A stretch of DNA of 64,000 bases. It comes from Thermoplasmatota archaeon (GTDB taxonomy: Archaea; Thermoplasmatota; SW-10-69-26; JACQPN01; JAJPHT01). The translations under genes and the position numbers were made by a program. Where the stretch lies: positions 11,581 through 75,580 of the forward strand of contig DATLCC010000065.1 of assembly GCA_035526585.1 (NCBI GenBank), read 5' to 3'. Below are positions 14,407 to 50,505 of this stretch, in pieces (within the stretch, counting starts at the first letter, position 1; each line of letters starts with the position of its first letter). The notes under the pieces were generated by a model. That model searched no databases. It worked only from the letters and a program-made list of their open reading frames with translations, and was not told the origin of the DNA.

Positions 14407-14431
14407 GGGGAGGGACCGGCGGCTCCTGCCC

Positions 14432-15592
14432 ATGAAGGTTATCCGGGCGCGCGCATCTGCCGCGCCCATGGCGGCGATCGGGGTGCGCGTGCACGGATAC
14501 GCCGCCGCCGCGCTCCTCGCGCTCGCGGCGCCGCTCGGGATCCTCGCGGCGCTCCGGCGCGGCCCGTTCGCGCCCGATCTCCATCTGCTCGCGGCGCTTG
14601 GCGGCCTGACGCTCCTGATGCAGTGCATCCTCTACTGGTATCTTCCGAGCTTCGCGAAGCGCGAGGTCTCCTTCGAAGGCATGGCCAGTTACTCCGGCCC
14701 GATCCTCTTCCCCGCGACGCTCGTCGGGGCGGCCCTGGACATGGGCGCGCTGCGCGTCGGCCTTCCTGCGATCGGGCTTGGCATCTTCGGCGCGATCCTG
14801 CTGCTCTCGCCGGTGGTCGGCCGGCGCTGGCGAAGCGGCGTCCCATTCTGGCGCACCCCGGGTCCGTTCCAGCGCGGCGACCGGCTCTCGATGATGACCC
14901 TCGCGGCCGGGGCGCTGTGGCTGCTGCTCTGCGCGTGGCTCGGCTTCACGCGCCCGACGATGCTCGCCCTCGTCTGGCCCATCGCGCTCCTCACGCTCGT
15001 CCTCGGCGCGCTCGCCCACTACGTCCCTCGGGGCCGCGGCCGCGCGATGCTCGCGGCGGCGTACGCGCTGGGCGCGTGCGCGTTCACGCTCGGCGCGGCG
15101 CTCCTCGTCGCGGAGCGCGCGGGCGCCGCCATCCCGCGCGGCCTGCCCGAGTCGCTCATCGCGGGTCTCCTCGTCGCCGGCGCCGCGATCGCCCCGCCTG
15201 GCGCGGCGAAAGCGGCCGGCGCGCGGCTTGGCCAAGCGGCGCCCTTCCTCCTCGCCGGGAGCGCGGCGATGGCCGGGGCGATCGTTTTCTCCGTCAGCGG
15301 ACGAGGCATCGGCTTCGCCTTCGCGGCATACTATGGCCTGCTCGCCGCCCTTGCGCTAGCCGTCGCGGGGCTCTCTCTTCTGCTGCTCCCCGTCGTGTTC
15401 AACGAGCGCCCCGACGCGCGCGGGCTCTGGCCGTCGGTCGGCTGCGCGCTCGGAGGGGCCGCGCTCTTCGCAGCGGGCGTCCTCACGCGCCTTCCGCGCT
15501 GGCCAGGCGCGGCGCTTCTCGCGATATCAGTCCTCTGCTGGCTCGCGATGATGGCGCCCTTGCGTCGACCCAGACGGGATTGCCCGGTGTGA
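14432..15592 (+). CDS. polytopic membrane protein, hypothetical
   Basis: About 10 predicted TM segments, Ala/Leu-rich. ATG at 14432 avoids overlap with the ubiX 5' end. Confidence 0.45.
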   Translation: MKVIRARASAAPMAAIGVRVHGYAAAALLALAAPLGILAALRRGPFAPDLHLLAALGGLTLLMQCILYWYLPSFAKREVSFEGMASYSGPILFPATLVGAALDMGALRVGLPAIGLGIFGAILLLSPVVGRRWRSGVPFWRTPGPFQRGDRLSMMTLAAGALWLLLCAWLGFTRPTMLALVWPIALLTLVLGALAHYVPRGRGRAMLAAAYALGACAFTLGAALLVAERAGAAIPRGLPESLIAGLLVAGAAIAPPGAAKAAGARLGQAAPFLLAGSAAMAGAIVFSVSGRGIGFAFAAYYGLLAALALAVAGLSLLLLPVVFNERPDARGLWPSVGCALGGAALFAAGVLTRLPRWPGAALLAISVLCWLAMMAPLRRPRRDCPV

Positions 15593-34743: not shown

Positions 34744-36321
34744 CTACTGAGGCGGCTTCGTGTTCGACGCGTACGTGCGGCTCTGCTCGCGCAGGAACTG
34801 CTGCAGGTACCACGGGCCGCCGGCGCCGCGCGAGGTCGTCGCGCTGAACTTCCAGCCGCCGAAGCTCTGCCCGCCCACCATCGCGCCGGTGGACGTGCCT
34901 CGGTCGCGGTTCGCGTACTGCACGCCCGCTTCGACCCGGTCGAAGAACCATTGCACCTCGTTCGCGTCCTTGCTCACGACGCCGAAGGTGAGCCCGTAGT
35001 CCGCCGCGTTCACTTCGCGCACGGCCTGCTCGTTGTCGTGGAACTTGCCGATCGCGACGAAGGGCACGAAGTATTCCTGGCGGAACGCCTCGTGGTCGAG
35101 CGGGAGCCCGGTGACGATGGTCGGCTCGACGAAATTCCCCTGGGCAAAGGCGCCTTCCTTGAGTCGGTGGCCGCCGACGATGAATTTGCCGCCCGCTGCG
35201 GTCGCCGCAGCGACCGCCGCGAGCCACGTCTCCACGGCGCCCGCGTTGATGACGGGGCCGAGGTCGGCTTCCTTCTTCCACGGGAGGTCGACGCGCAGCT
35301 TCTTGCCCTTCTCGGTGAGCTTCGCGACGAAGGCGTCGTAGACCGACTCGTGCACGTAGACGCGGGACGTCGCGCTGCACTTCTGGCCGCCGAAGCCGAA
35401 CGCGCTCTTCAGCACGCCGGTGGCCGCGATGTCGAGGTCGGCGTTCTTCGTCACGACGGTCGCGTTCTTGCCGCCCATCTCCGCGATGTAGGGCCGGGGG
35501 CGCTTGCCGACGAACGACTGGTAGTTGCGCATGCCGACCTCGCGGCTGCCCGTGAAGACGAGACCATCCACCTCGGGGTGGTCGATGAGCGGCTGGCCGA
35601 CCTCGCGGCCGCCTCCGGTGACGAAGGAGAGGACCTCCTTCGGGACGCCGGCATCGTGCAGGATGCGCACGACCTCGTACGCGGTCCACGGCGTGTCGCT
35701 CGCCGGCTTCAGGACGACCGCGTTCCCGGTGATGAGCGCGCCCACCGTCATGCCGGTCGGGATGGCGACGGGGAAGTTGAAGGGCCCGACGACCGCGAAG
35801 ACTCCCCACGGGCGCATGACGCTCACGCACGTCTCATCCGGGAACGGCTTCCCGAGCGGGACGGTGAAGCCGTTCTCGTGGCGGATCTTCCACGCGTAGA
35901 ACTTGAGGAAGTCGATCGCTTCGTCGACGTCGTAGTACGCCTCGACGCGGTTCTTCCCGTTCTCGATCGACATGAGCGCCGCGAGCATCGGCCGGCGCTC
36001 GCGCATGATCTCGACCGCGCGCTCCACGATCGCCGCGCGCTTCGCGTGCCCGAGCCGCTCCCATGCGGGCTGCGCCGCCTTCGCGGCCGTCACGGCCGCG
36101 TCCACGTCGGCGGTCGTGCCGTGCGGGAAGGTCGCGATGACCTCGCCGGTCGAAGGATCGCGGTCCTCGAAGCTCTTCGCATGGCGGACCTCCTTGCCAC
36201 CGACGAGCATCGGGAACGACTGCCCCGTCCGCTTGCGCAGATCGGAATACGCCTCCTCGAACTCCCGGTCCAACCGAGCCATGTCGCGGAAGGCGGTGTT
36301 CTCGTTCTCGAAGGCGGCCAT
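34744..36321 (-). CDS. aldehyde dehydrogenase family, likely 1-pyrroline-5-carboxylate dehydrogenase
   Basis: ELGGKN-type AEMGGKNATVV. Catalytic Cys FGFGGQKCSATSR. 525 aa. Confidence 0.85.
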   Translation of the reverse strand: MAAFENENTAFRDMARLDREFEEAYSDLRKRTGQSFPMLVGGKEVRHAKSFEDRDPSTGEVIATFPHGTTADVDAAVTAAKAAQPAWERLGHAKRAAIVERAVEIMRERRPMLAALMSIENGKNRVEAYYDVDEAIDFLKFYAWKIRHENGFTVPLGKPFPDETCVSVMRPWGVFAVVGPFNFPVAIPTGMTVGALITGNAVVLKPASDTPWTAYEVVRILHDAGVPKEVLSFVTGGGREVGQPLIDHPEVDGLVFTGSREVGMRNYQSFVGKRPRPYIAEMGGKNATVVTKNADLDIAATGVLKSAFGFGGQKCSATSRVYVHESVYDAFVAKLTEKGKKLRVDLPWKKEADLGPVINAGAVETWLAAVAAATAAGGKFIVGGHRLKEGAFAQGNFVEPTIVTGLPLDHEAFRQEYFVPFVAIGKFHDNEQAVREVNAADYGLTFGVVSKDANEVQWFFDRVEAGVQYANRDRGTSTGAMVGGQSFGGWKFSATTSRGAGGPWYLQQFLREQSRTYASNTKPPQ

Positions 36322-36361
36322 GGTTCGCCATCGCCCCGTCCTGGGGAAAAGCGTTGCGGCC

Positions 36362-36901
36362 TCACGGCCGCCTGCGGAGCGCGGCGTCCAGCTCGCGCAC
36401 GAGCGCGCCCAGGCGCCCGCCGCCCGCCGGCGCGGCCGGGTAGCGGGCGAGCACCGCGACCACGACCGGCGACGCTCGCCGCCGCGCGCCTTCGAGGCTC
36501 GCGAGCGCGGCCGCGCCCTCCCCGCCCGCCGCGAGCTCCTGCGCGCGCGCCGAGTACGCGGCCGAGCCGAGGATGTGCTTCACCTGGTGCGCGTCGGCCA
36601 GCGGGTGCAGATACGCCGCGCCCGCGGCCGCCATCGCGGCGCGCGCGGCCTCCGCGGCGGCCGGCGCCTGCGCGTCCTTCGCCGCGCGCATCGCCCCCCA
36701 CGCCGCGTCGCGCAGCGCCTTCCCGCGCTTCCCGCCGCGCGCGAACGTCCACGCCTCCGCGATCGCCTGGCGAGGACGAGCGTCCTCCGGATGCGCGGCC
36801 TCGAAGAGAGGGAGGACCTCCTCCGCGCACTGGGCCGCGAAGGCCGCGACCTCCCGCAGCTCGTCGAGCGTCAAGGGGAGCCCGCGCGCCTCGGCCGCCA
36901 T
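36362..36901 (-). CDS. hypothetical Ala-rich helical protein
   Basis: 179-aa ORF, all-alpha and Ala-rich. Could be partly compositional. Confidence 0.35.
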   Translation of the reverse strand: MAAEARGLPLTLDELREVAAFAAQCAEEVLPLFEAAHPEDARPRQAIAEAWTFARGGKRGKALRDAAWGAMRAAKDAQAPAAAEAARAAMAAAGAAYLHPLADAHQVKHILGSAAYSARAQELAAGGEGAAALASLEGARRRASPVVVAVLARYPAAPAGGGRLGALVRELDAALRRRP

Positions 36902-36997
36902 CGGGCCCGCGAGCGGAAGGCGCGCCCTTCAAACCTGCGAGGCTCCGCTCCGCACATCACCACCTATTTAGCGCGAGCCTGCGGTATCGCGGGCGTC

Positions 36998-37546
36998 ATG
37001 GTCAAGGAGCTCAAGATCGGCATCACCGGTCTTCCCTCCGTCGGAAAGACGAGGACCCTTCTCAAGATCGTCGAGAAGCTCGAGGAGAAGGAGCAGATCG
37101 TCGGCGGCATGGTCACCGAAAGCATGGACGAAGGAGCCACGCGCCTCGGCTTCAAGATCGTCAACTGGCTCACCAAGGAGGAAGGCATCCTCGCCCACGT
37201 CGACTTCGCCGACGCCAAGGTCAAGGTCGCCGGCTTCGGCGTCGACATGAACATCCTCGACGGGATCGGCGTCACCGCGATCGAACAGGCCATCAAGGAA
37301 GCCGAAGTCATCGTCATCGACGAGGTCGGCAAGATGGAGATGGAAAGCCCCGCCTTCTGCGCCGCCGTCAAGAAAGCGCTCGACAGCAGCAAACCCATGA
37401 TCATGACGCTGCACAAGAAGAGCCGCAACCCCCTCCTCCAGGACATCCGGCGCCGGGATGACATCCGAATACTGGAAGTCACGAAGATCAACCGCAACCT
37501 CCTCCCCTACAAGATCGAGAAGCTCCTCGAAGGCGAGAACATCTAG
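36998..37546 (+). CDS. nucleoside-triphosphatase, THEP1/Mj1559 family
   Basis: Walker A GITGLPSVGKTR, Walker B VIVIDEVGKME. TATA-like ctatttag about 35 nt upstream. Confidence 0.75.
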   Translation: MVKELKIGITGLPSVGKTRTLLKIVEKLEEKEQIVGGMVTESMDEGATRLGFKIVNWLTKEEGILAHVDFADAKVKVAGFGVDMNILDGIGVTAIEQAIKEAEVIVIDEVGKMEMESPAFCAAVKKALDSSKPMIMTLHKKSRNPLLQDIRRRDDIRILEVTKINRNLLPYKIEKLLEGENI

Positions 37547-37778
37547 CCTGGCCCTTTTTCGAGTCGGACCTCGGGCTCGCGCACCTGCGGTCACGCCATG
37601 CGCTGCGGCGCACGGCTTGGTCCTTGCTTGCTTCGCCTCGCTGCGGGTGCGTCGCCCAAGGTCCTCGCCCGCGCCGCTGCGCGAGCGCTCGCTGCGGCGC
37701 GCGTCGAAAAGGCGCCAGCGGAAACTCCGAGCTATCCACACTTGTCGCTGCGCGTTCGCAAATGGGGAAACCCTTTCT

Positions 37779-37800
37779 GTAACCATTTAGTTACACGTCT
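37779..37800. promoter_or_regulatory. dyad motif GTAACC-N4-aGTTAC-ACGTCT about 200 nt upstream of the RHH array
   Basis: Near-identical motif at 47031-47052 and a related one at 3585-3605. Confidence 0.3.
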
Positions 37801-38003
37801 TCCGCGAAGGCTGAGGTGGCGAGGATCCCCGGCCCTGGGCCGCGACCGGGCCCGGGCCCGGACCCCCCGTGCCCGGGAACCTCCAGCCCGGCTGTCCCCG
37901 CGCCCGGACGCGCCGGCGCCAGGGCCAGCGAGCAGCCGCTTGTCCCGTTGGTTCGAACAACGTACCATACCCTCCCTGGCCACCAAGGGGTTGGGCTCAC
38001 CCC

Positions 38004-38186
38004 ATGCTCATCCACGACCCCCCGAAGAAGACCGGCACGAAGGAACTGAAGGTCCACATCCCGGTGAAGTACCACCTCCAGCTCCACCAGTTGAAGGTCC
38101 TCCAGGGCCGCCAGATCCACGGCGTCATCGAGGAAGCCCTCGACCTCTGGTTCCAGCGCGTGAACGGGGCGGCCAAGGCCGACTGA
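38004..38186 (+). CDS. small ribbon-helix-helix (CopG/Arc-like) protein, paralog 1
   Basis: MLIHDPPKKTGTKELKVHIPVKYHLQLHQLKVLQGRQIHGVIEEALDLWF. Confidence 0.5.
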   Translation: MLIHDPPKKTGTKELKVHIPVKYHLQLHQLKVLQGRQIHGVIEEALDLWFQRVNGAAKAD

Positions 38187-38260
38187 GGCGGCTGCCTGCT
38201 TGTTCGCCCATGGCGAACAACCCCACATACCCTGGAAAACCGGAACTGGAGTCGGACACC

Positions 38261-38473
38261 ATGTTCATCCACGACCCCCCCAAGCCGACGACGCGCAAGG
38301 AGCTGAAGGTGAACCTGCCCGCGAAGCAGCACCGCGACCTGCGCGCCCTCCAGCAGGAGATGGGCGAGGACGCCCCCAAGATCGTCGCCGAGGCGCTGGG
38401 CCTCTACTTCAGCCGGCTCGCCCAAGAGGCGAACCCGCAGCGCCCCGTCTTCGCGAAGCTGGGTCGTCTGTAA
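38261..38473 (+). CDS. small ribbon-helix-helix protein, paralog 2
   Basis: MFIHDPPKPTTRKELKVNLPAKQHRDLRALQQEMGEDAPKIVAEALGLYF. Confidence 0.5.
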   Translation: MFIHDPPKPTTRKELKVNLPAKQHRDLRALQQEMGEDAPKIVAEALGLYFSRLAQEANPQRPVFAKLGRL

Positions 38474-38527
38474 AGGCGAGACGAGCGACGCGATATCCCA
38501 TCACATCCCACCTCGGAAGGAGACCCC

Positions 38528-38749
38528 ATGCTGATCAAGGAACGACCCAAGAAACCGGGAATGAAGGAACTCAAGGTCAACATCCCGGTGAAGTACCACC
38601 TTCAGCTCCACAGCCTGAAGGTCATGGAAGGTCGCCAGATCCACGGGGTCGTCCAGGAAGCGCTGGACAAGTACTTCGCGTCGCTGCGCGCGGCTCAGGA
38701 AGACGCGCGCGACGATGACGGGACCGAAGACAGCGGGATGTCGAAGTAG
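38528..38749 (+). CDS. small ribbon-helix-helix protein, paralog 3
   Basis: MLIKERPKKPGMKELKVNIPVKYHLQLHSLKVMEGRQIHGVVQEALDKYF. Confidence 0.55.
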   Translation: MLIKERPKKPGMKELKVNIPVKYHLQLHSLKVMEGRQIHGVVQEALDKYFASLRAAQEDARDDDGTEDSGMSK

Positions 38750-38898
38750 GTCGCCCGAGCATCGGTGCCGTTTTCCGGGCGCGCTTTTCGGATGCGCGCC
38801 CGCAGGCGCGCACCCCGCGCCCAGGCGCGGGGCGAGGGCCGCAGCGCGCGTCGCGCACGACGCGCCCGGAGCGCCCGAGTCCGAAAAGGGTGCGGCGG

Positions 38899-39057
38899 CA
38901 CCCGGTGAAGTACCACCTTCAGCTCCACAGCCTGAAGGTCATGGAAGGTCGACAGATCCAGGGGGTCGTCCAGGAAGCGCTGGACAAGTACTTCGCGTCG
39001 CTGCGCGCGGATCAGGACGCGGCGAACGAGGATGAAGAGAAGGAAGAGACCGCCTAG
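38899..39057 (+). pseudogene. 5'-truncated copy of RHH paralog 3
   Basis: nt 38899-39008 match nt 38581-38690 with about 2 mismatches. The N-terminal Met and beta-strand region are absent. Its stop overlaps the convergent TrmB-like gene stop (CCTAGG). Confidence 0.45.
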
Positions 39058-40305
39058 GTCGCCTTCGCCGTTTCCCAGCTCTTCTCGAACCCGCGCCACA
39101 TGCCTTCGACCGAAGGCACGAGCGAGACCCACACTCCATACTCGGCGAGCGCGGCGACCTCCTCCGTCGCGGCTTTGCCCGTGAACACGAGCAGCGTCTC
39201 GGCCCGGTCCACGAGCACCATCGGCGCGCCCAGCGCCCCCTCGCCCGCGCGCACCTGCGCGCCCGCGATCTCCGCGCGCACGCCCGGCGGCACGAGGATC
39301 CGCACGCGCACGCCCTCGCGGATGCGCGACGCGAGCGCGCGCCCGATGCCGCTCGCAGCAAGGCGCGCCGCTTCTCCCGCGGAGAGGACGAGCGCGATCT
39401 CGGTCGCCGCGCGAAGCAGCATCTCCTTCTGCTTCTCGTAGCGCGTCAGGCGCCCTTTCACGACGAGCACCTGCTCGGACGCGCGCCCGCTCGTGAGCTC
39501 TTCGAGGCGCGATGCGGCCGGCATGGCGAGCGTCCACTGGTCGTCGAAGAACGCGCGCTGCGCCTGCACGTGGTCGCGGGCGCCGATCCAGAGCGCGGTC
39601 TCCTTCGCGTCCTTCCCCATTGGGTCCGCCGTGACGTACTGGACGATCTCGCGCTCGTCGGCCACGAAGAAGCGCAGCGGGCGCGGCACCATCAGGTGGC
39701 GCACCTCGGCGAACTCCGACATGCGGCGCAGCACGTCCTCCTGGCCCGGCAGCACCTCGGTGAGGATACGCGCCGAGACGCCGCGCTTGTGGGCGGCGCG
39801 CAGCTCCGTCTCCAGCCCCTCGTCGAGGAGGAGCCGGAAGAGCGCGCGGGAGGACGCGACGACGCAGAGCTCCTTCTGCGCGGCGCGGATCGTGCGCGCG
39901 AGCTGGCCGTTGATCTGGTTGCGATCGTGCAGGATGCGGAACGACTCGGAGACCTTCTCCTGCTTCGCCGTGCCGCCTGAAAGTCGGCCCAGCCGCGCGG
40001 CGAGGTCCTCCTTCATCGTCTCCACGGCCTTGAGGCCCGCGGCGCGCTCCTCGACGAGGATGGAGAGCGCCCGCTCCGCCGGCACGGCCGTGAACTGCCG
40101 CGGGCGCGAGAGCGTGCCTTCGACGAGGCCGCGCCCCTGGAGGCGCTCGAGGATCTGGTACGTCTCGGCGCGCTTCAGGAGCGCCGCCTTGGCGAGGTCC
40201 GTGACCTTGCTCGCTCCGAGATGCGTGAGATGCGCGAACGCGCGCGCCTCTTTCTCGCCCAGCCCGCACTGCTGGAGGCGGGTCACGACATCGTCGACCT
40301 TCATG
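39054..40305 (-). CDS. TrmB-family-like transcriptional regulator with long C-terminal sensor region, co-transcribed with a response regulator
   Basis: N-terminal wHTH LTHLGASKVTDLAKAALLKRAETYQILERLQGRGLV. ATG overlaps the stop of the upstream receiver gene (ATGA). Confidence 0.6.
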
Positions 40306-40690
40306 CGCCGTCCTCCTTGGAGAGAAGCCACTCTTTGACCTCGTACACCAGCCGCTTCCCGAACTCGTTGTTCTTCACGACGTAGGCGGCGGCGCCCAGC
40401 TGCAGCGCCTGGATGGCGACCTCCTCGCTGCCTTGCGAGGTCATGAGGATCACGGCCGGCTCCTTGCCTTTCGCGCGCAGCGTCCGCAGCACGTCGAGCC
40501 CGCTCATGTCGGGGAGCCTGTAGTCGAGAAGGACGAGGTCGTAGCGCTCCTCGTTCGCGCGCTCCAAGGCCTCGTCGCCCAGGCGCGCGGTGTCGACGCG
40601 CCACGACGCCTCGACCCGCAGCGCGCGCGTCGCGAGCTGCACGTGGTCGAGATTGTCGTCGACCAAGAGGATGCGCAGAGCCCCGACCAT
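40301..40690 (-). CDS. response regulator receiver domain protein (CheY-like, stand-alone)
   Basis: LRILLVDDN ... YDLVLLDYRLPDMSGLDVL ... AVILMTSQG. No histidine kinase within the window. Confidence 0.75.
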   Translation of the reverse strand: MVGALRILLVDDNLDHVQLATRALRVEASWRVDTARLGDEALERANEERYDLVLLDYRLPDMSGLDVLRTLRAKGKEPAVILMTSQGSEEVAIQALQLGAAAYVVKNNEFGKRLVYEVKEWLLSKEDGA

Positions 40691-41336
40691 TGTATGACCA
40701 ATTCTGACAATCAGGCAATAAGCTTCGCGTATTGGCTCCAAGGTTGCCAGGGTCTTGCGCCTTCGCCCTCCAGCCGCGAGTCGTTGGCCGAACCATCGAA
40801 CCACCGGATCAACGAGCGAGGGTGCTATCCTCGCGCTGGTCCGATGGTTCGGCCAGGATCGCAAGCCGAGCGGCTGACGCGGCGACTTCGTTCGAGTCGC
40901 TATGCCAGATGGCACGAGCGAGTCCTAACGCATCGTATCGCGCGCTGTGGCTCGTTGCCATGACATCAGGGGTCATGCAGGGTGCTCAGGTTTCCATGTG
41001 AGCGACACCCTGATCGGGATCTCAGCGTCGGTGGCCCGCGGGAAGGCCACAGCGCTTTCTTCGCTTTCGGGGCCCGAAGGCACGCGAGATCGCCCCTGCT
41101 CGTTGATGTTCTTCGGAGAGGATCGCGCGGGCCCTGGCGAGTACTCTCTTGCATGGACGGGCGCGCATGCTGATGTCAAGGAACCAGTCTTCTGGTGGGC
41201 AGACGTCCCGACGCCGCCGTTCGCGTCCCCATAGCACCGCGCGTGGCCGTCACTCAGCCACCATTTCCCCTCGCGATGGTTCGAGGGTTCGATGGTTCGG
41301 CTCAGAATATCGAGTCCCGTGACTGAAAAAGGGGGA

Positions 41337-42164
41337 TCAAGGGCGCGTCTGGCGTCGCTCGCGCCTTCTGCCGCGCGCATAGAAGAACGGCAGCAGGGCC
41401 ACGGCCAGGATGACGAACGTGAACGAGCCGCGCAGGACGTTCGGTTGGTTCTCCGGGAAGAACAGGATCACCGCGACGGTGACGAGCGCCGCAGCCGCCA
41501 TCAGCAGCGCCAGCACGACGGCGCGGCCGCGCGACTTCGGGTACGCCACGTTCGACATGTTGAGGAAGGCGAGGAGCACGACGACCGGGAGCGCGTAGTT
41601 GTACGGGATGCGAGCCACGATCAAGAGCGCGATGGTGACCGCGGACCATGGCGTCGGGAGACCTTGGAACGTCGTCGTCTGGCCTTCGACCGGGTTGCTG
41701 TTGAAGCGCGCGAGTCGCAGCATGCCCATCACGAGCACGAGGCCGGCGGCGAGGAGCGCGGGGAACGTGTGCACGGCGCCGTAGTAGGTGAAGACCATGA
41801 ACGCGGGCGTCATCACGAACGTGATCGTGTCGCTCAGCGTGTCGAGGTCACCACCCAGGCGCGAGCCGCCGAACTTGCGCGCGACGATGCCGTCGAGCGC
41901 GTCGCAGATGCCGCCCAGCGTGATGAGGACGGACGCGAGGAGGAAGCGGTCGTCCTGCCCGTTGGGCGCGAGCCCCGGGAAGACGCGGTCGAGGCCGGGG
42001 AAGAAGGGCGGCTCGTAGAGGACGACGACCTTCGTGAGGACGGCGATCGCGAGGAACCCCGCGAGGCCGTTCGTGAGCGTGAAGAGGTCCGCGGCTGATA
42101 TCACGCTGCGGATGCGCGGCAGCCGGGGGATGCGCCCGCGCACCGCGTGCCCGAAGCGCCGCAT
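41337..42164 (-). CDS. pssA: CDP-alcohol phosphatidyltransferase, archaetidylserine synthase-like
   Basis: DALDGIVARKFGGSRLGGDLDTLSD motif. Several TM segments. Alternative starts at 42236 or 42284 would add a repetitive LKVP N-terminus. Confidence 0.7.
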   Translation of the reverse strand: MRRFGHAVRGRIPRLPRIRSVISAADLFTLTNGLAGFLAIAVLTKVVVLYEPPFFPGLDRVFPGLAPNGQDDRFLLASVLITLGGICDALDGIVARKFGGSRLGGDLDTLSDTITFVMTPAFMVFTYYGAVHTFPALLAAGLVLVMGMLRLARFNSNPVEGQTTTFQGLPTPWSAVTIALLIVARIPYNYALPVVVLLAFLNMSNVAYPKSRGRAVVLALLMAAAALVTVAVILFFPENQPNVLRGSFTFVILAVALLPFFYARGRRRERRQTRP

Positions 42165-42169
42165 GCGCG

Positions 42170-42245
42170 GGTGGATCGGGACCTTGAGCTCCGGCACCTT
42201 GAGCGGCGGAAGCCGCGGCACCTTGAGCTGCGGCATGCGCGTGAA
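42170..42245. repeat. four tandem copies of about 15 nt (GGCACCTTGAGCNNC)
   Basis: gaccttgagctccggcaccttgagcggcggaagccgcggcaccttgagctgcggc. Would encode (LKVP)n if translated. Confidence 0.5.
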
Positions 42246-42270
42246 GCGCGGGCCGTGGCGCTTGGGCGCG

Positions 42271-42885
42271 CTAGAGCTCGGCAAGCACCGTCTCCCCTGC
42301 CACCATCTTGTCGCCCTCCTTCACGGCCGGCCGAAGCCCCGCCGGAAGGTAGACGTCGACGCGCGAGCCGAGGCGGATGATGCCGATCCGATCCCCCTTC
42401 TCGACCTTCGCGCCCTGCGCAAGGTAGGGGAGGATGCGGCGCGCGAGCGTGCCCGCGATCTGCACGACCTCGAGGTCGCCGACCTCCGTCTCGAAGTGCC
42501 ACACGACGCGCTCGTTGCGCTCCGACTCCTTGTTGAACGCGGGGACGAAGCCGCCCTGCACGTGCTCGACGCTCGCGACGCGGCCCGCGAGCGGCGCGCG
42601 GTTCACGTGCACGTTGAAGGGGTCCATGAACGTCGCCACGCGCGTGCGGCCATCCGGATAGACGTCGATCGACTGCACGACGCCATCCGCAGGCGCAAGG
42701 AGCCCCGGCCGCTTCGCATCGCGCTCCGGATCGCGGAAGAAGTTCAGCATGATGAGCGCGAGCGCGAGGAGCGGAGCGACGAGCGCCCACCACCACGCGC
42801 TCACCGCGAGCGCGAGCGCAAGCGCGAGGAACGTGGCGGCCCACGTGACGTAGAACCATGGACTCGTGCCCTTCGCGAGGCGCAT
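42271..42885 (-). CDS. psd: phosphatidylserine (archaetidylserine) decarboxylase proenzyme
   Basis: N-terminal TM, FMDPFNVHVNRAP, C-terminal LGSRVDVYLP (pyruvoyl-forming G-S site). Confidence 0.75.
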   Translation of the reverse strand: MRLAKGTSPWFYVTWAATFLALALALAVSAWWWALVAPLLALALIMLNFFRDPERDAKRPGLLAPADGVVQSIDVYPDGRTRVATFMDPFNVHVNRAPLAGRVASVEHVQGGFVPAFNKESERNERVVWHFETEVGDLEVVQIAGTLARRILPYLAQGAKVEKGDRIGIIRLGSRVDVYLPAGLRPAVKEGDKMVAGETVLAEL

Positions 42886-42963
42886 GATATCCCTCGCAGC
42901 TTGGCCTCGCGCTTAAAGCGTTCCGTCTTGCGGCGTTGCACGGCCGGAACGGCGGACCGCAGG

Positions 42964-43878
42964 TCACGCGTCGGTGGGCGCCGGCGCGGGATCGACCTTG
43001 CTGGGCGGCGGAGGCGGCGGCTTGCTGAAGAAGCCGGCGTGCTTGCGCTTGCGCAGGTCGAAGAGGTCGAGGATGTTCGAGTGGAGCTCCGGCAGCAGGG
43101 CGAAGACCCCGAGCGCGATGAAGACCATCGCGACGAGGGAGCCGATCTTGCCGACGTAGCTGTGCATCCATTCGAAGGGATCGATGCCGAACATCCCCCA
43201 GCCGAGCACCTTGTAGCCGTACACGATCCCCGCGTTGCGGAAGAGGTTCAGCACGTAGATGACCGGGACGGTGATCGCGTACGCCTTCCACTTCCGCGAG
43301 CTGGATGCGCGCAGGCAGGCGATCGCGCCGACGAAGATCATGATGCTCTGGATCGCCGTGCACGCGAGGATCACGGTGACGGCGTACTCGGTCCCGCCGT
43401 TGAGGAAGATGTGCGCGTCGCCGGTGGAGTCCTGCACGACGCCGTTCGGGACTCCGAAGATCGTGCTCAGCATCCAGCTCGACTGGATCGCGGTCTGGTA
43501 GATGAGCCACTTCTGGACGGCGGGGATCTCGTAGATGACGAAGTACGTGAGGGCGGAGACGAACGAGGCGCCGGTGAACCAGCGCAGCGCCTCCGGATCC
43601 TCCCTCCAGCGGTAGCTCTTGATCTCGTGCCAGGCGATCCACAGGAGGAAGATCGGTCCCAGGAGCGTGAACCACCCGTTGATCGGGTCGGGCTCGGTGT
43701 CGACGGGGTGGAAGAACTCGGGCGCCTGGAAGGGCCAGTAGAGCGCGAAGAGCGTCCAGCCCGCGGCGCGCAGCCAGTGGGCTCGGCGGTCGCGCCAGAG
43801 GAACCCGGCGCCCATGAGGCCAAGGCCCGTGAAGACCATGACCAGGAGCGCGGGCTGCCAGGCCGAGAAGTCCACCAT
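42964..43878 (-). CDS. artA: archaeosortase/exosortase family protein (ArtA-like)
   Basis: Polytopic. VTVILACTAIQS candidate active-site Cys. LNLFRNAGIVYG candidate Arg. PPPPPPS tail. Confidence 0.65.
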   Translation of the reverse strand: MVDFSAWQPALLVMVFTGLGLMGAGFLWRDRRAHWLRAAGWTLFALYWPFQAPEFFHPVDTEPDPINGWFTLLGPIFLLWIAWHEIKSYRWREDPEALRWFTGASFVSALTYFVIYEIPAVQKWLIYQTAIQSSWMLSTIFGVPNGVVQDSTGDAHIFLNGGTEYAVTVILACTAIQSIMIFVGAIACLRASSSRKWKAYAITVPVIYVLNLFRNAGIVYGYKVLGWGMFGIDPFEWMHSYVGKIGSLVAMVFIALGVFALLPELHSNILDLFDLRKRKHAGFFSKPPPPPPSKVDPAPAPTDA

Positions 43879-43978
43879 CTGGCTTCGGACGAGTCGCCGG
43901 GGGTTAAAAGGGTTTGCGGACAGCGCGTGCAAGCGCTGCGGCGCTTGCCCGCGTCGTCCGTGTCGGCCTGCGGGCCGG

Positions 43979-45568
43979 CTATCGGTCTGGCACGACTCCG
44001 AAGGGCGCGTACGCCTCCGCCGCCCGCTGCAGGACGGCCGCGCGGTCCGCACCGGGCAAGAGCGGCACGATGACGCGCGGCGCGACGGGCGCGCCTTGCC
44101 CCGCGATGAACGCGGCGCTCGTCCACAGCGCCTGCGAGGGGCCGCCGAGCACGCCGCCGATGCCGACGATGGTGCGCGAGACGTTCCCGTGCCCGAGCTC
44201 GATGCGCGCCGTCGCGAACGGCGTCGCGACGAGGTCGGGGCTCCCGAGCGCGAGCGTGCGCGAGCGCGACAGGTTGTCGAGCGCGTCGGCCGTGTCGTTC
44301 CAGCGCCCCGAGGGGTCGAGCGCCCAAGGAGTCGGGCCCTCCGCGTGCGCAAGGAGGAGCACGTCGCGCGCGAGGGGCGCCGCGTCCATCGTCGTCGCCT
44401 CGCCCACGCCCGGTCGCCCGGCGAGCGCGAGCGCGGGCGCGCCGGCGCCTTCGACCGCGGGGAGCTTGGTGATATCGAGGTCGTGGGCAGCGGCGAAGAC
44501 GAGCGCGCCCTCGCTCGCGCGCTCAACGCGCGCGGGGAGCGGGCGCGGGTGGAGGGCGAGCGTCAGCCCGTCGGGCCCGCGCGCGGCGTCGAGCGCGCGC
44601 TCGTCGGCGTGGGTGAGGTTCGCAAGGAGCGCGGTGACGCCGTGCGTGCCGGCGAGCGCGCGTGCGTCGTCGAGGTTCAGGATGATATCAGCGCCGAGCG
44701 GGAGCTCGGCTTGAGCGCGCGCCACCGTCAGGTCGCGCGCGGTGGGCGTCGCGTTCGCGAGGATCGAGCGCGCCTGCGCGGCCGCGCCCTCGACCTGCTG
44801 GAGGCGGTCGTCGAACCACGTGTAGCCCGGCTCGCGCACGCGCACGATCCCCGCAGCGGCCGCGGTCGCAAGCTGACCGTTCGCCTCGAGCGTGAACGCG
44901 ATCACCCAGTCGCCCGCGGCCATCGTCTCGGGGAACGCGCCCGTCGTGAGCGGACCGTCGAGCGGCGCGGCGGCGCCAAACGGCGTCGCCGTGCCATCGG
45001 GCGCGGTCGCGGTCCCGTTCCAGTACGCGGGGCGCGCTCCGGGCCCGAGCTCGACGAGGTCCGGGAGGAACGCGCCATCGCGCGCGCCTTCGTCCACGCG
45101 CAGCCGCAGCCGCGCCTCGCCCTGGCGCACGGTGGGGAGCGCGCAGAGCTTCGCCGCCTCGCGCGCCTCGCATGTGGTGAGGCGCTCCATCTCGAAGTAG
45201 GTCGCCACGTAGGGCGTGGGCCACGCGTGCGAGCGCAGCGCGAGGGCGTCGCCGGTTGCGAGCCCGGTCGACGCCGCGACGATCGCGGTGCCCGGCTCAG
45301 GGAGCGCGATGCCCAGCGCTTCCGCTGCGCGCGCGTCGAGGCCCGCGTAGTCGTGGACGCGCGCGCCCATCGCCTCCCCCAGCACGAGCGCGCCAAGCGC
45401 CGCGGGCGCGTGCGCCTCCGCGAGGAGCGCATCTGCGCGCGTCGCGTCGAAGGGCCAGCGCCCATCGAGCGCGAGCAGGCGGAGCTGCGCCACGTCGGGC
45501 TCGGGCGTGGGCGTCGGCGGCGGCCCGCCGGGCGTGCCGCACCCCGCAAGCAGCGCGACGGCGAGAAG
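43979..45568 (-). CDS. lipoprotein, hypothetical (about 530 aa)
   Basis: ALPLLLAVALLAGCGTPGGPPPTPTPEP. Probable TTG start. The rest of the 1031-aa ORF is Arg-rich junk. Confidence 0.4.
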   Translation of the reverse strand, partial: LLAVALLAGCGTPGGPPPTPTPEPDVAQLRLLALDGRWPFDATRADALLAEAHAPAALGALVLGEAMGARVHDYAGLDARAAEALGIALPEPGTAIVAASTGLATGDALALRSHAWPTPYVATYFEMERLTTCEAREAAKLCALPTVRQGEARLRLRVDEGARDGAFLPDLVELGPGARPAYWNGTATAPDGTATPFGAAAPLDGPLTTGAFPETMAAGDWVIAFTLEANGQLATAAAAGIVRVREPGYTWFDDRLQQVEGAAAQARSILANATPTARDLTVARAQAELPLGADIILNLDDARALAGTHGVTALLANLTHADERALDAARGPDGLTLALHPRPLPARVERASEGALVFAAAHDLDITKLPAVEGAGAPALALAGRPGVGEATTMDAAPLARDVLLLAHAEGPTPWALDPSGRWNDTADALDNLSRSRTLALGSPDLVATPFATARIELGHGNVSRTIVGIGGVLGGPSQALWTSAAFIAGQGAPVAPRVIVPLLPGADRAAVLQRAAEAYAPFGVVPDR

Positions 45569-45742
45569 AAGAGGGAGCGCCCGCAACGCGCGACGAACCG
45601 ACGCTTGCGCCTTGAAGGGTTCGTTGCCGGAAGCGGAGGAGGAAGCGGGATCCGGAACCGGGACGGACGACCGCCGGGTCCCAGGTTCCGCTACCGCATC
45701 CTCTTCCGAGGTCCACAAACGAGAAGAGAGAGCGGAGTCGTC

Positions 45743-46993
45743 GCGGCGCCGATGCGTGCGCTCGCGCTCCTCCTCGTCCTCCTCCTCGCGGGCTGCTCGA
45801 CGCCGGGCGCGAAGGACGGCGGCTCCCCGACGGCGCCGACGGCGTCGGCGTCGCGCTTCCTCGCGCCGCAGGTCATGGGCGAGGGAGGCCCCGAGCCCGT
45901 GCTCGCGTTCTCGCCCGAGGGGGATCGGCTGTATCTCGCGGCCCAGGATCCCGAGGGGGGTGGCCCGTTCGTGTGGGTCTCGAAGGATGGCGGCGCGACG
46001 TTCGACCTCAAGCGCCCGACGCAGCAGGGGGGCGGCGAGGTGGATCTTGCGGCCGGCCCGAACGGCGCCGTCTATCTCACGCAGCTCGGGGCGCGCGGGA
46101 ACATCGTGAGCGTGTCGCGCGACAAGGGCGAGACGTGGGACTCGGCCCCCCTCGGGGGGGCCTCGCAATATTTCGACCGCGAGTGGCTCACGGTCGACGC
46201 GAACGGGCGCGCGTATCTCGTGGCGCGCGAGTTCGGCACGACCGCGAGCGCGGGCGTCGCAAGGAGCGACGATCGCGGGCTCACGTGGCCGCCGCGCGGG
46301 AAAGCGTGGACCGCGCTCGACGAGCCGGGCGAGGCGAACGGGCCGCTCGTCGCAGTGGGAGCCAACGTGCACCTCGCATACATCTGCCGCCAGGGCGAGG
46401 CCGTGTGCGTGTCCACGACGCGCGACGGCGGCCTCACGTGGTCGCGCGCGGTCGTGGCGAGCCGCGGCACGAACGCCGCGAACGTGTACCCTGCGCTCGC
46501 GAGCGTGGGCGGCGCGCTCCTTGTCGCGTGGGCGGATGCGAGCGACGGCGCGCTTGCGGTCTACACGTCGCGCTCGAGCGATGCCGCGTCGTGGTCCGCG
46601 CCCCAGCGGGCCTCCGCGACCGGCGGCACGGCGGCGCTCCCGTGGCTCGCCTCGCGCGGCGGCGCGACATGGCTCGTCTACCTGCGGGCCGACGAGGCGA
46701 TGGCCGCAACGGACTGCGCGCAGGCGCAGGGCGCGCGGTGGATCCCGACCGCGCAGCCCCTCGACGCGCAGGGCGCGCCGCAGGGCGAGCCGATGCCCCT
46801 CACGACGGAGCCGGCGCACGTGGGCATCGTGTCGCCGCCCGTGGGCCAGTCGTGCAGCGGCGGCGCCCGGGACCGCAACTTCGGCGATTTCTTCACCGCC
46901 GCGATCTCGCCCCCGGGGAAGCTCGTGGTCGCGTGGTCGGCCGACACCGGCACGATCGCGAGCACGCGGGACATCGTCGTTCGGGAACGATGA
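45743..46993 (+). CDS. lipoprotein with BNR/Asp-box sialidase-like beta-propeller (paralog 1)
   Basis: MRALALLLVLLLAGCSTPG. Asp-boxes SKDGGATF, SRDKGETW, SDDRGLTW, TRDGGLTW. Confidence 0.7.
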   Translation, partial: AAPMRALALLLVLLLAGCSTPGAKDGGSPTAPTASASRFLAPQVMGEGGPEPVLAFSPEGDRLYLAAQDPEGGGPFVWVSKDGGATFDLKRPTQQGGGEVDLAAGPNGAVYLTQLGARGNIVSVSRDKGETWDSAPLGGASQYFDREWLTVDANGRAYLVAREFGTTASAGVARSDDRGLTWPPRGKAWTALDEPGEANGPLVAVGANVHLAYICRQGEAVCVSTTRDGGLTWSRAVVASRGTNAANVYPALASVGGALLVAWADASDGALAVYTSRSSDAASWSAPQRASATGGTAALPWLASRGGATWLVYLRADEAMAATDCAQAQGARWIPTAQPLDAQGAPQGEPMPLTTEPAHVGIVSPPVGQSCSGGARDRNFGDFFTAAISPPGKLVVAWSADTGTIASTRDIVVRER

Positions 46994-47030
46994 GGCCGAG
47001 GGAACGACGGATCGGGGGCAGAGAGAAAGC

Positions 47031-47052
47031 GTAACCTCTTGGTTACACGTCT
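47031..47052. promoter_or_regulatory. dyad motif GTAACC-N4-GGTTAC-ACGTCT, followed by the ATGGCGCCAT palindrome
   Basis: Read directly. About 190 nt upstream of BNR paralog 2. Confidence 0.3.
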
Positions 47053-47173
47053 GCCACATGGCGCCATATGGCACACCCGTCGCGGTCCCGGTTCCCGGCT
47101 TCCGGCTTCCGGGTCCCGGGTCCTCGGTCCCCGGGTCCCGGTCCCCGGTCCCCTCTTTCCCGCGTTCCCACGT

Positions 47174-47212
47174 CCGTCACCCCCGTCCGGGGTGACACGA
47201 AGCATTTTAGTC
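47174..47212. promoter_or_regulatory. CCGTCACC-N8-GGTGACACG dyad plus TATA-like CATTTTAG about 25 nt upstream of the ATG
   Basis: Read directly. A related GTCACC/GGTGACACG pair lies upstream of paralog 3 (50560-50638). Confidence 0.35.
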
Positions 47213-47223
47213 GTCTAGACAAC

Positions 47224-50200
47224 ATGCCTCGGCTCAAGGTACTGGGGAGGCTCACCCACGTGTCCAACCGCGCTGCTTCGTTCATCGTCCTCGCTCTCCT
47301 AGTGCCGCTTGCGGCTCCCTTCGTGCCCGGCGCGGGCGCGCTCCCTTCGACAGCGCCGCGGTACTCGACGTACGTGGGTCCGGACGAGAACCAGGTCTTC
47401 ACGGTCTTCATCGACTCGGGCGGCGAGCCGTCGATCGGCGTGGACTGGAGGACGGGGGAGATCCTCTACCAGCGCGGGTTCCACACGTTCCGCGCGGAGC
47501 TCCAGGACGACGGCGGCTCGGACTGGATCGACGTCTCGGCGCCCAACACACCGTTCAACATCGACCCGATGCTCTTCACCGACAGCGCTACGGGCCGTAC
47601 GTTCGCGGGTGGGCTGGATGGCATGTGCAGCTCGATGGCCATCACGGACGATGGCGGCCGCACGTGGATCCCCGCGGGGAACATGTGCGTCCCGACGCTC
47701 GACCACCAGACGATCGCGTCGGGCCCGTGGGCGGCGACGACGCTCCCCTCGTCGCCCGCGTTCGATCGCGCGACCTACTACTGCGCGCAGGCGTCCGCCG
47801 TCACGTGCATCACGAGCCAGGACGGCGGCCTCACGTGGGGCCCGCCCGTTCCCGTGACGTGCGGTTTCGTCGATCCCGGCTTCCACGGGAGCGTGCACGT
47901 GGGCCCGGATGGCAAGGTCTTCCTTCCATTCAAGAACTGCCAGGGCGGCGCGGGCGTCGCGGTGAGCGCCGACAACGGCCTCACGTGGACGTCCCACAAG
48001 GTCCCGAGCGCGGTGTACCCGGGTGCTGGGTTCGACCCCGATGTCGCCACGACCCCGAGCGGCTGGCTCTATCTCGGCTACGCGAACGGCGCGACGGGCG
48101 CGGCCACGGCCACGATGTCCAAGGACAACGGCACGACCTGGTCCACGCCCGTGGACGTCGGCGCGCCGCTGGGCGTCGTCGCGAGCACGTTCCACGAGAT
48201 GGTCGCCGGCGACGACGGGCGTGCCGCGCTCGCGTTCCTTGGCACGACCACCGCGGGCAACGGGTACGACCCGGCCTTCGCGGGCGTGTGGGACCTCTAC
48301 GTCGCGACCACCTACGACGCGGGCGCGACCTGGACGACGGTCAAGGCCAGCACGGACCCGGTGCAGCGCGGCTGGATCTGCGCGGGCGGCACGGGCTGCG
48401 CGACGGACGAGTCCGGCCACCGCAACATGCTCGACTTCATGGACGCGCAGGTGGACGCGCAGGGCCGCGTGCTCGTGGGGTATGCCGACGGCTGCACCGG
48501 CGAATGTGCGGGTCCCGCAGGCACGAGCGCGCAGTCCTTCCACAGCCAGGCCACGATCACGCGTCAGTCGAGCGGGCTCACGCTCTTCTCGGCGTTCGAC
48601 CCGTCGACGGGCGCGCTCTTTGCGACCGGCGGCGGACCGTACACGACGCAGGCCGGGAGCGCCGTCGCGCTCGATGGCGAGGCGGCCAACGGCGTCGCGC
48701 CCTACAGCTACTCGTGGAGCGTGCTGAGCCGGCCCGCGGGCTCGGCGGCCGGCGCCTCGTCGATCGCCGCCGCCGCGACCGCGGGCGCGAGCTTCACGCC
48801 CGACGTCGTCGGCGACTATCTGCTGCGCTTCGAAGCGCGCGACGCCTCGGGCGAGCGCGCCGTCGACGTCGTGAAGGTCACCGCCGCGAGCCTGCCGGGC
48901 GTCCCCGTCGCGACGTGCGGCGTCCCGCTCGCGAGCGACGCGGTGGGCGACTCGACCGCCGCGGGCGCGGGCTCCTCGCGTCGTGATATCACGAGCGTCT
49001 CCGCGAGCGACGCGCAGGGCATTTGGACGCTCTGCGTGAGCGTGGCGAGCATGGCGGAGGCGGCGACGGCGGGCTCCAAGTTCACGTTCTTCTGGGACGC
49101 GCCCTACGAGCTTCCTCTCATCACGTACTCCGCATCGGCCACAGTCACGGCGGGCGGCACCGTCGGCAGCGCCCAGTTCTCCAAGGGCGTCGCGGGCGTG
49201 ACCCTCGCGCAGCTGGGCGGCCCGGCCTCCGCGTCGCTCGATGGCGACACGCTGCGCATCACGCTCCCGCGCCCCGGCGTCGGCGGCCCGCAGGATGGCG
49301 AGAGCGCGACGAACCTCTTCGTGCGCGTGGAGAACACCGCGACGCCTACGACGACGTGGGACCGTGCGCCCGACGCGGGCGGGCTCGCGTACACGTTCGG
49401 CCACAATGCGCCCGACGCGGTCGCGCCCGCGCAGGTGACGGGCCTCGCCGGCGAGGACGCGCAGACGGGCGGCCTCGTGAACCTCTCGTGGGACGCCTCC
49501 AGCGACGACATCGGCGTGAAGGACTACGTCGTCCGCCGCTCGACGCTTGCGGGCGGCCCGTACCGGACGGTCGCGCTCGTCGAGGGCCTCGCGTTCCAGG
49601 ACGCCGGCCTCGTCGACGGGACCGCGTACTACTACGCCATCGGCGCGCGTGATGGCGCGGGCAACATCGGCCCGCTCTCGGCCGAGGTCGCCGTCACGCC
49701 CACCGGGCCCGGTGGTCCCGCGGGCGACACGAGCGCGCCCACGTCGCCCGGCTCGCTCGCGACGAGCGCGCTCGCGTCCACCTCGCTCACGCTCACCTGG
49801 CTCGCGGCCGACGATCCCGAGACGGGGATCGACCACTACGAGGTGTACAAGGACGGCGTACGCATCGCGCAGACGACGCTCCTCACGCAGTCCGTGGGAG
49901 GCCTCGCGCCCTCCACGAGCTACGACCTCGAGGTGCGCGCGGTGAACGGCGCCGGCCTCGTCGGCGCGGGCGCGACGTTGACCGTGACGACACCCGCGCG
50001 CCCGCCCGACTGCGGGCAGGCCGCGTCGCCGTTCACGCTCGCGACCGACGCGGGCGGCGACAGCGCGCGCGGCGACGGGCGCGCGGAGATCGTGCGCGTG
50101 GGCGTGAAGGAGACGTCCACGCGCATCGGGTTCTACGTGAGCCTCGCCGACGCGAGCACCCCCGCCCCGAACACGATGTTCCGCGTGTCCTGGCGCACCG

Positions 50201-50505
50201 ACGACCTGCACGGCTTCGCCCTCTACGTCCGGCTCACGGACGCGGGAGCGGCGCCGGCGGGCGTGTGGGTCGTGACGCCGGCGAACGAGGTGAACACGCT
50301 CCGGCAGCCCCAGTTCGGCCTCCAGTGCGACACGGTGTTCATCAGCGTCCAGAAGCAGGACCTGCTGAACCCCGCGCCTGGCGAGCTCCTCCGGGATCTG
50401 CGCGTGACGGCGTCCGTGGACACGACGAACCCGCCCGAGTCCCAGATCTATGATGCCGCTCCTGATACCGGGGGCGTCGATTACGTGATGGGGAGCGCGG
50501 CCTGA
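47224..50505 (+). CDS. secreted BNR/sialidase-like propeller protein with PKD-like region and two fibronectin type III domains (paralog 2, 1093 aa)
   Basis: Signal peptide. Asp-boxes TDDGGRTW, SQDGGLTW, SADNGLTW, SKDNGTTW. N-terminal 470 aa collinear with paralog 3. Confidence 0.7.
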   Translation: MPRLKVLGRLTHVSNRAASFIVLALLVPLAAPFVPGAGALPSTAPRYSTYVGPDENQVFTVFIDSGGEPSIGVDWRTGEILYQRGFHTFRAELQDDGGSDWIDVSAPNTPFNIDPMLFTDSATGRTFAGGLDGMCSSMAITDDGGRTWIPAGNMCVPTLDHQTIASGPWAATTLPSSPAFDRATYYCAQASAVTCITSQDGGLTWGPPVPVTCGFVDPGFHGSVHVGPDGKVFLPFKNCQGGAGVAVSADNGLTWTSHKVPSAVYPGAGFDPDVATTPSGWLYLGYANGATGAATATMSKDNGTTWSTPVDVGAPLGVVASTFHEMVAGDDGRAALAFLGTTTAGNGYDPAFAGVWDLYVATTYDAGATWTTVKASTDPVQRGWICAGGTGCATDESGHRNMLDFMDAQVDAQGRVLVGYADGCTGECAGPAGTSAQSFHSQATITRQSSGLTLFSAFDPSTGALFATGGGPYTTQAGSAVALDGEAANGVAPYSYSWSVLSRPAGSAAGASSIAAAATAGASFTPDVVGDYLLRFEARDASGERAVDVVKVTAASLPGVPVATCGVPLASDAVGDSTAAGAGSSRRDITSVSASDAQGIWTLCVSVASMAEAATAGSKFTFFWDAPYELPLITYSASATVTAGGTVGSAQFSKGVAGVTLAQLGGPASASLDGDTLRITLPRPGVGGPQDGESATNLFVRVENTATPTTTWDRAPDAGGLAYTFGHNAPDAVAPAQVTGLAGEDAQTGGLVNLSWDASSDDIGVKDYVVRRSTLAGGPYRTVALVEGLAFQDAGLVDGTAYYYAIGARDGAGNIGPLSAEVAVTPTGPGGPAGDTSAPTSPGSLATSALASTSLTLTWLAADDPETGIDHYEVYKDGVRIAQTTLLTQSVGGLAPSTSYDLEVRAVNGAGLVGAGATLTVTTPARPPDCGQAASPFTLATDAGGDSARGDGRAEIVRVGVKETSTRIGFYVSLADASTPAPNTMFRVSWRTDDLHGFALYVRLTDAGAAPAGVWVVTPANEVNTLRQPQFGLQCDTVFISVQKQDLLNPAPGELLRDLRVTASVDTTNPPESQIYDAAPDTGGVDYVMGSAA

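Follow-up and report, generated by a model that had tools for sequence, protein, structure and literature searches.

In Haloferax volcanii, processing by archaeosortase A (ArtA) requires two lipid enzymes, HvPssA (HVO_1143) along with HvPssD (HVO_0146) (PMC7157517), and the critical residues of Haloferax ArtA include Cys173 and Arg214 (PMC9263693). The chemical identity of the lipid anchor, and the reason that cleavage by ArtA depends on PssA and PssD, are still covered only by a speculative model that rests on Haloferax, an organism in which the three genes are unlinked. Synteny of the type artA-pssD-pssA has been noted in Methanosarcina (Haft et al. 2012, as cited in PMC7157517). Here we describe a cluster of the same kind in an uncultured soil archaeon of the phylum Thermoplasmatota, found in a 64-kb stretch of DNA (the window) in which artA, psd and a pssA-type gene form a contiguous trio on the minus strand at 41337-43878. 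We conclude that this trio probably constitutes an ArtA/PssA/PssD-type module for anchoring proteins to lipid by their C termini. The cluster had been outlined in a first-pass annotation made from the sequence alone; its boundaries coincide exactly with the three genes, and what that annotation stated about Haloferax and Methanosarcina is accurate per PMC7157517.

The trio shares with the Haloferax system the same three enzyme families, the numbering of the Cys and Arg residues (C173 and R214) and the presumed thioester-archaetidylethanolamine chemistry. It differs in that its genes are contiguous, whereas they are unlinked in more than 70 haloarchaea; in addition, its Psd and PssA score below the NCBIfam cutoffs for sorting-system enzymes, and no PGF-CTERM substrate was seen in this genome fragment. 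The Methanosarcina cluster is likewise contiguous and has the decarboxylase gene in the middle, but it belongs to the Methanosarcinales, whereas the arrangement described here is near-universal in the Thermoplasmatota and extends to a fusion of ArtA to Psd in the Poseidoniales. The "protein sorting system" enzymes modeled by NF038086 and NF038088 have the same folds, predicted reactions and archaeosortase link as the PssA-type protein and Psd of the window. The psd-pssA operon of Actinomycetota has the same adjacency and gene order, and its Psd (Nonomuraea, Streptomyces) is 63-65% identical to ours, but it lacks an upstream sortase gene, and the lipid substrate in the archaeon should be an archaeal ether lipid. 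In the exosortase/PEP-CTERM and rhombosortase/GlyGly-CTERM systems, a polytopic membrane enzyme likewise removes a C-terminal signal made up of a motif, a transmembrane helix and a basic tail; exosortases are only distant homologues of the window ArtA, and rhombosortase, in whose system a glycerophosphoethanolamine moiety is involved (cited in PMC7157517), is nonhomologous.

Identity of the three gene products

Third-position GC plots (the window is ~70% G+C) and the listing of open reading frames (ORFs) showed four successive minus-strand genes, three of which make up the cluster:

42964..43878, minus strand: artA, archaeosortase A, 304 amino acids (aa), with its ATG at 43878 and its stop at 42964
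42271..42885, minus strand: psd, 204-aa proenzyme of a phosphatidyl-/archaetidylserine decarboxylase, the N terminus of which carries two transmembrane helices
41337..~42236, minus strand: pssA-type CDP-alcohol phosphatidyltransferase, a putative archaetidylserine synthase, start uncertain

Three contiguous genes on one strand, in the order artA-pssD-pssA, is the arrangement of the Methanosarcina type. The gap between artA and psd is 78 nucleotides (nt), and psd and pssA either overlap or lie up to 106 nt apart, depending on where pssA starts.

The archaeosortase-like identity of the 42964..43878 product was borne out by its profile scores. It matched the ArtA model TIGR04125 with 150.9 bits (cutoff 75), residues 26-277 aligning to profile positions 13-264 of 271, and the exosortase/archaeosortase signature TIGR04178 with 67.9 bits (cutoff 23), and all 120 of its best homologues come from Thermoplasmatota. 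A GenBank protein that is 100% identical (P0001), encoded on a contig of 102,497 bp from a Thermoplasmatota MAG, is already named "archaeosortase A [Ca. Thermoplasmatota archaeon]". The first-pass annotation had named two findings that would speak against this identity, a better score as a bacterial exosortase and loss of the catalytic Cys and Arg. Neither was seen, since every bacterial exosortase model stayed far below its cutoff (XrtR, 29.1 bits against 150; XrtH, 27.3 against 86; XrtX, 24.7 against 170), and both residues are present. C173, R214, H239, N211, Q177 and S178 were invariant when 18 homologues were aligned and again when 85 were, and K244 and R278 were each kept in 84 of the 85. 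The numbers of C173 and R214 coincide with those of critical residues in Haloferax ArtA, HvArtA itself lying outside the alignment. The Cys and Arg proposed at first reading thus stand in all 85 homologues, but the Asn put forward as the third residue does not hold in that role, the third residue in Haloferax being Arg253. The conserved basic residues beyond R214 are K244 and R278, and H239 is kept in 85 of 85 homologues; one of these may be the counterpart of Arg253. A search of the PDB returned no relatives of either ArtA or Psd.

The second gene encodes a phosphatidylserine decarboxylase-type protein, as had been read from the sequence. Psd matched NF003683 with 263.5 bits (cutoff 244) and PF02666 with 137.7 bits (5e-40), and an identical GenBank protein (P0241) is already named "phosphatidylserine decarboxylase". 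The G173-S174 pair of its LGSR self-processing site, together with H93 and D67, is kept in 72-74 of 74 homologues; the pair taken by itself is kept in 72-73 of 74 and was invariant in one alignment (A2). Over its full length, the window Psd is closer to the Psd of Nonomuraea, Sinosporangium and Streptomyces (63-65% identical) than to most Thermoplasmatota Psd proteins (40-57% identical), and a neighbor-joining tree placed an actinobacterial Psd clade as sister to the clade of the window protein. The adjacent PssA-type protein has no such actinobacterial kinship, being 29% identical to the PssA of an actinobacterial-type locus (L088). The sequences point to a likely transfer of psd between the domains, in one direction or the other, and the soil lineage may have exchanged psd with Actinomycetota yet kept its slot behind artA.

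The CDP-alcohol phosphatidyltransferase-type gene reported on the same strand was also confirmed. Its product passed a single family model, PF01066 (37.4 bits; cutoff 22), and carries the complete motif D-x2-D-G-x2-A-R-x7-G-x3-D-x3-D (D88, D91, G92, A95, R96, G104, D108 and D112 in the numbering of a 275-aa product), the residues of which are shared by 51-52 of 52 homologues; position 108 may be either D or E. Its scores against serine-type models all fell below their cutoffs (TIGR04217, 99 bits against 200; NF038087, 94.7 against 240; TIGR00473, 89.6 against 107) and were higher than those against pgsA (34 bits) and phosphatidylinositol phosphate synthase (18 bits). Because the best specific models are of the serine type yet remain subthreshold, we can describe the enzyme only as presumably serine specific, a prediction that the adjacent psd supports. 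Its only relatives in the PDB are phosphatidylserine synthases (7B1K and 7POW, E value of 1e-13), relative to which it has an insertion of ~35 aa past the first helix. The candidate starts are ATG 42164, ATG 42236 and TTG 42284. Residues upstream of Met-42164 are conserved at two related loci (L002 and L007), which favors a longer N terminus.

Conservation of the cluster and fusion of ArtA to Psd

We assembled 85 distinct loci, all from Thermoplasmatota, by combining a scan in which each species was represented by one genome (80 loci) with exact-protein look-ups for five ArtA homologues (74% to 38% identity with the window ArtA), and the proteins of the window supplied the profiles with which we searched the neighborhoods. 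The loci fell into the following classes:

artA-psd-pssA: 31 of 85 loci
ArtA-Psd encoded by one ORF, with pssA next: 20 of 85 loci
artA-psd only: 17 of 85 loci
artA-psd, followed by the end of the locus: 6 of 85 loci
no psd beside artA: 7 of 85 loci
too short to tell: 4 of 85 loci

Among the 81 informative loci, psd directly follows artA in 74, and pssA then follows in 51. This adjacency spans lineages in which ArtA is only 31-74% identical, and the clustering of artA with psd is far beyond chance. As a reverse test, metagenomes were scanned with a Psd alignment. Where there was room upstream, artA lay directly upstream of a Thermoplasmatota-type psd in 10 of 11 metagenome loci, and none of the bacterial psd-pssA pairs in the same scan had artA upstream. 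The window cluster is an ordinary instance of an arrangement that is deeply conserved in the Thermoplasmatota.

The 17 artA-psd loci in which no pssA was detectable within 6 kb (the L019-L039 group and L004) belong mostly to one Thermoplasmata clade whose ArtA is ~40% identical. In their case the synthase gene must lie in another part of the genome or have been replaced.

In 20 species-level genomes of the Poseidoniales/MGIII type, ArtA and Psd form a single ORF of ~550 aa that is followed by pssA:

fusion loci: L044-L049, L054-L058, L061, L063, L064, L066, L068-L070, L073, L076, L085 (for example, L049:5875-7530)

The fusion at L049 matched TIGR04125 with 141.6 bits over residues 4-251 and NF003685 with 193.6 bits (cutoff 183) over residues 309-476. 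These single-ORF cases are true fusions, because no stop codon separates the two domains, both domains match their models, and a protein of ~551 aa with PF09721 and PF02666 is called in over 100 independent marine assemblies. The ~551-aa protein is annotated under one function only, either as "archaeosortase A" or as "phosphatidylserine decarboxylase".

A literature search, the coverage of which was incomplete, found no report of phylum-wide conservation in Thermoplasmatota, of the ArtA-Psd fusion or of the tailed surface protein that adjoins it (see below), and no paper in which an archaeosortase is tied to either Thermoplasmatota or Poseidoniales or in which a Psd fusion is described, so that novelty is unproven. 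The kind of system is already known, from Methanosarcina synteny, Haloferax genetics and the NCBIfam "sorting system" models, as are the annotations of artA and psd. The unreported points lie mostly outside the window.

Sorting signals and candidate substrates

The large BNR proteins near the cluster had been noted to lack a PGF-CTERM tripartite tail, with the suggestion that the substrates may be encoded elsewhere or carry another sorting signal. Both observations held. The BNR/PKD proteins have no C-terminal anchor and no tail made up of a transmembrane helix plus basic residues, and a tail scan found no PGF-type or other C-terminal motif-helix-basic tail, nor an internal one, in any ORF of the 64-kb window. 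The single look-alike, the tail of the 14363..15592 product, which ends ...WPGAALLAISVLCWLAMMAPLRRPRR, was rejected as a substrate because the protein is polytopic. The lipobox on the 45752..46993 and 43979..45598 proteins makes them candidates for N-terminal lipidation of the AliA type, a route separate from ArtA (PMC12462473), rather than for ArtA. The closeness of the cluster to the BNR/PKD surface proteins is no functional evidence, and the substrates in this genome are presumably encoded elsewhere.

In relatives of the window locus, candidate substrates with signals of several kinds lie beside the module. Directly after pssA, and convergent to it, 18 of the 20 fusion loci have a multidomain surface protein (with MAM, CARDB and Ig-like domains) that reaches ~1480 aa and ends in ...SLLPGPSF, a transmembrane helix and YRRK, a PGF-like tripartite tail of the pattern ...SLLPGPSF[ILV]S..L.[IL]VY[RK]R[KR]. 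Examples are as follows:

L049:8322-12770, minus strand: PGPSF-tailed surface protein
L055:8460-12866, minus strand: PGPSF-tailed surface protein

At L017, where ArtA is 55% identical to that of the window, the plus-strand gene 11050-12315, 3.7 kb downstream of artA, encodes a secreted protein of ~420 aa with a signal peptide and a linker rich in Pro, Asp and Glu. Ending in PRPAFGWVALGLALLGGAVAGAAIVLAKRR (PAF, transmembrane helix, KRR), it is a candidate substrate whose tail has PAF where PGF would stand. PGF tails are present at L037 and L071. Neither the PGPSF nor the PAF tails matched the PGF-CTERM model TIGR04126 at an E value of ≤1, and only L071 came close to that model (21.4 bits; cutoff 24.5). 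The mismatch of the PGPSF and PAF tails agrees with the first-pass idea that a different signal may be used.

Promoter- and terminator-like elements

Three short elements flank or punctuate the trio:

43903..43910, minus strand: TATA-like box CTTTTAAC, ~28 nt ahead of the ATG of artA, by consensus resemblance only
42912..42918, minus strand: TATA-like box CTTTAAG, ~30 nt upstream of the psd ATG, read from the sequence
41326..41330, minus strand: T5 run resembling an archaeal terminator, 7 nt past the pssA stop, read from the sequence

The 43903..43910 box is a putative promoter element and the T5 run a putative terminator. No T-run follows the artA stop, and read-through from artA into psd is possible, as is an internal promoter at the CTTTAAG box serving psd and pssA; the unit may be read from the artA promoter as well as from this internal one. 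The TATA-like boxes of artA and psd lie at about −28 to −30, and the transcripts are therefore probably leaderless.

Proposed mechanism and alternative readings

By analogy with the Haloferax model (PMC7157517), the three enzymes would act in sequence. The PssA-type enzyme would transfer the archaetidyl group from CDP-archaeol to L-serine. Psd, a pyruvoyl enzyme predicted to cleave itself at Gly173-Ser174, would decarboxylate the resulting archaetidylserine to archaetidylethanolamine. ArtA, as a polytopic cysteine transpeptidase using Cys173 and Arg214, would cut the tripartite signal (a short motif, a transmembrane helix and a basic tail) of secreted proteins, leaving a thioester intermediate on Cys173, and the amine of the ethanolamine lipid would resolve this thioester to leave the protein amide linked to the lipid.

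The observed basis of this reading lies in the gene identities, the catalytic motifs, the synteny across the phylum and the ArtA-Psd fusion of relatives; its chemistry would be that of Haloferax. Several points weigh against it. The PssA-type protein scored 67.4 bits against NF038086 (anchor_synt_A; cutoff 200) and Psd scored 191 bits against NF038088 (anchor_synt_D; cutoff 240), so that by the curated cutoffs neither is a member of these sorting-system families. Psd is 63-65% identical to the housekeeping Psd of cultured Actinomycetota and therefore bears no sequence mark of specialization. The absence of any tail-bearing protein from the ORFs of the window counts in the same direction, as do the separate TATA-like boxes of artA and psd, because of which strict cotranscription of artA, psd and pssA, which we presume, is not established.

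Alternatively, psd and pssA could be simply a housekeeping pathway for bulk archaetidylserine and archaetidylethanolamine, with artA nearby as part of a general "envelope" gene neighborhood and ArtA not functionally dependent on the two enzymes. The window Psd passes the generic equivalog NF003683 and misses the sorting-system model, it resembles actinobacterial housekeeping enzymes, its gene has a TATA-like box of its own, and in ~65 of 80 metagenome loci psd-pssA without artA is an ordinary bacterial phospholipid operon, which also speaks against an anchoring role. Nevertheless, artA and psd have stayed adjacent at 74 of 81 loci despite the low identity of the ArtA proteins, artA stands upstream of nearly all Thermoplasmatota-type psd genes with room for it (10 of 11), the translation of ArtA and Psd as one polypeptide, seen in 20 species-level lineages, would be difficult to account for if the two were not functionally coupled, and Haloferax genetics shows the dependence directly (PMC7157517). 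We therefore judge a purely housekeeping role improbable. The anchor role and the bulk-lipid role are not exclusive, and one pathway could serve both. The idea that the 42964..43878 product is a bacterial exosortase with PEP-CTERM partners, or that the contig is bacterial, can appeal to the subthreshold matches to XrtR, XrtH and XrtX (25-29 bits) and to the actinobacterial look of Psd; it has next to no probability. The profile scores led us to reject it, since the ArtA model passed where the exosortase models failed by a wide margin. Thermoplasmatota account for the 120 best homologues and for every one of the 80 genome loci, a gene for a TrmB-family regulator and archaeal-looking promoters lie nearby, and no C-terminal motif-helix-basic tail, PEP-CTERM included, occurs in the window.

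A different question is whether the module is intact but ArtA of this lineage reads a signal other than PGF-CTERM. The TIGR04125 score is only moderate, the PGPSF tails of Poseidoniales and the PAF tail of L017 escape TIGR04126, and L071 alone comes near that model. However, PGPSF and PAF differ little from PGF and keep Pro...Phe in front of the transmembrane helix, classical PGF tails occur at L037 and L071, and the window contains no substrate of this genome that could show the specificity, so that we consider altered specificity rather unlikely. A bolder version of the anchoring module, in which ArtA, Psd and PssA form an obligate physical machine in the Thermoplasmatota, perhaps reading non-PGF signals such as PGPSF and PAF, and in which the Poseidoniales fusion could channel fresh archaetidylethanolamine to the sortase active site, we put forward tentatively. 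The anchoring module itself, proposed in the first-pass annotation, emerged strengthened by the synteny across the Thermoplasmatota and by the natural ArtA-Psd fusions; that it is dedicated to this task is something we infer.

Neighboring genes

The cluster had been placed immediately upstream of a surface-protein locus. It is indeed near one, but the two are not directly adjacent: the 539-aa lipobox gene intervenes, and the BNR/PKD genes lie on the opposite strand, divergent from the cluster, with the first start at 45752. The genes on either side are as follows:

39054..40304, minus strand: TrmB-family gene, after the response-regulator gene
40301..40690, minus strand: response-regulator gene, beyond the spacer that follows pssA
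43979..45598, minus strand: lipobox protein without a family name, 539 aa, GTG start, signal ...LLAGC
45752..46993, plus strand: BNR lipoprotein with an N-terminal lipobox (LLAGC)
47221..50505, plus strand: BNR/fn3/PKD surface protein with a cysteine-free N-terminal signal sequence
50704..61464, plus strand: PKD/He_PIG/BNR surface protein of ~3,600 aa with a cysteine-free N-terminal signal sequence

The 43979..45598 protein matched no Pfam or NCBIfam family and has no C-terminal anchor, and we left it out of the module. It has homologues at L001 (47% identity) and at L007 (38%); at both loci an NfeD-Band_7 (stomatin) pair separates them from artA. This pair is kept upstream of artA at L001, L002, L004 and L005 and is missing from the window. 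Large BNR or PKD proteins likewise lie within a few kilobases of artA at L001 and L002.

Between pssA and the response-regulator gene is an unusually long noncoding spacer (40691..41336; 646 nt), the equivalent of which is 173-244 nt at L001 and L002. It contains three exact copies of CCGAACCATCG[AG]ACC, at 40788-40802 (plus strand), 40838-40852 (minus strand) and 41286-41300 (minus strand), and this repeated element may be a binding site for a regulator. The spacer had no Rfam match and no similarity elsewhere. An Rfam scan of 36000..47500 and a tRNA scan of the whole window returned only mir-H20 at 45630..45711, a chance-level match (29.5 bits; gathering threshold of 99).

Just downstream of the TrmB gene, and convergent to it, lie three tandem paralogous small genes on the plus strand (38004..38186, 38261..38473 and 38528..38749), which encode proteins of ~60-73 aa that share ...KELKVNIPVKYHLQLHSLKV..G..IH.V..EAL..YF. 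L001, L002 and L005 each have one unannotated small gene of 63-70 aa near the same position.

Significance

That the trio travels together across a mostly uncultured phylum provides independent comparative support for the direct coupling of ArtA to an ethanolamine lipid that the Haloferax model proposes. The ArtA-Psd fusion in abundant marine archaea, with a giant tail-bearing surface protein adjoining it, adds to that support, and the fusion protein is a possible natural construct for biochemical or structural reconstitution. If ArtA proteins of this phylum do read non-PGF signals, the substrate repertoire of the Thermoplasmatota, that of the soil lineage included, would be invisible to the current PGF-CTERM model.

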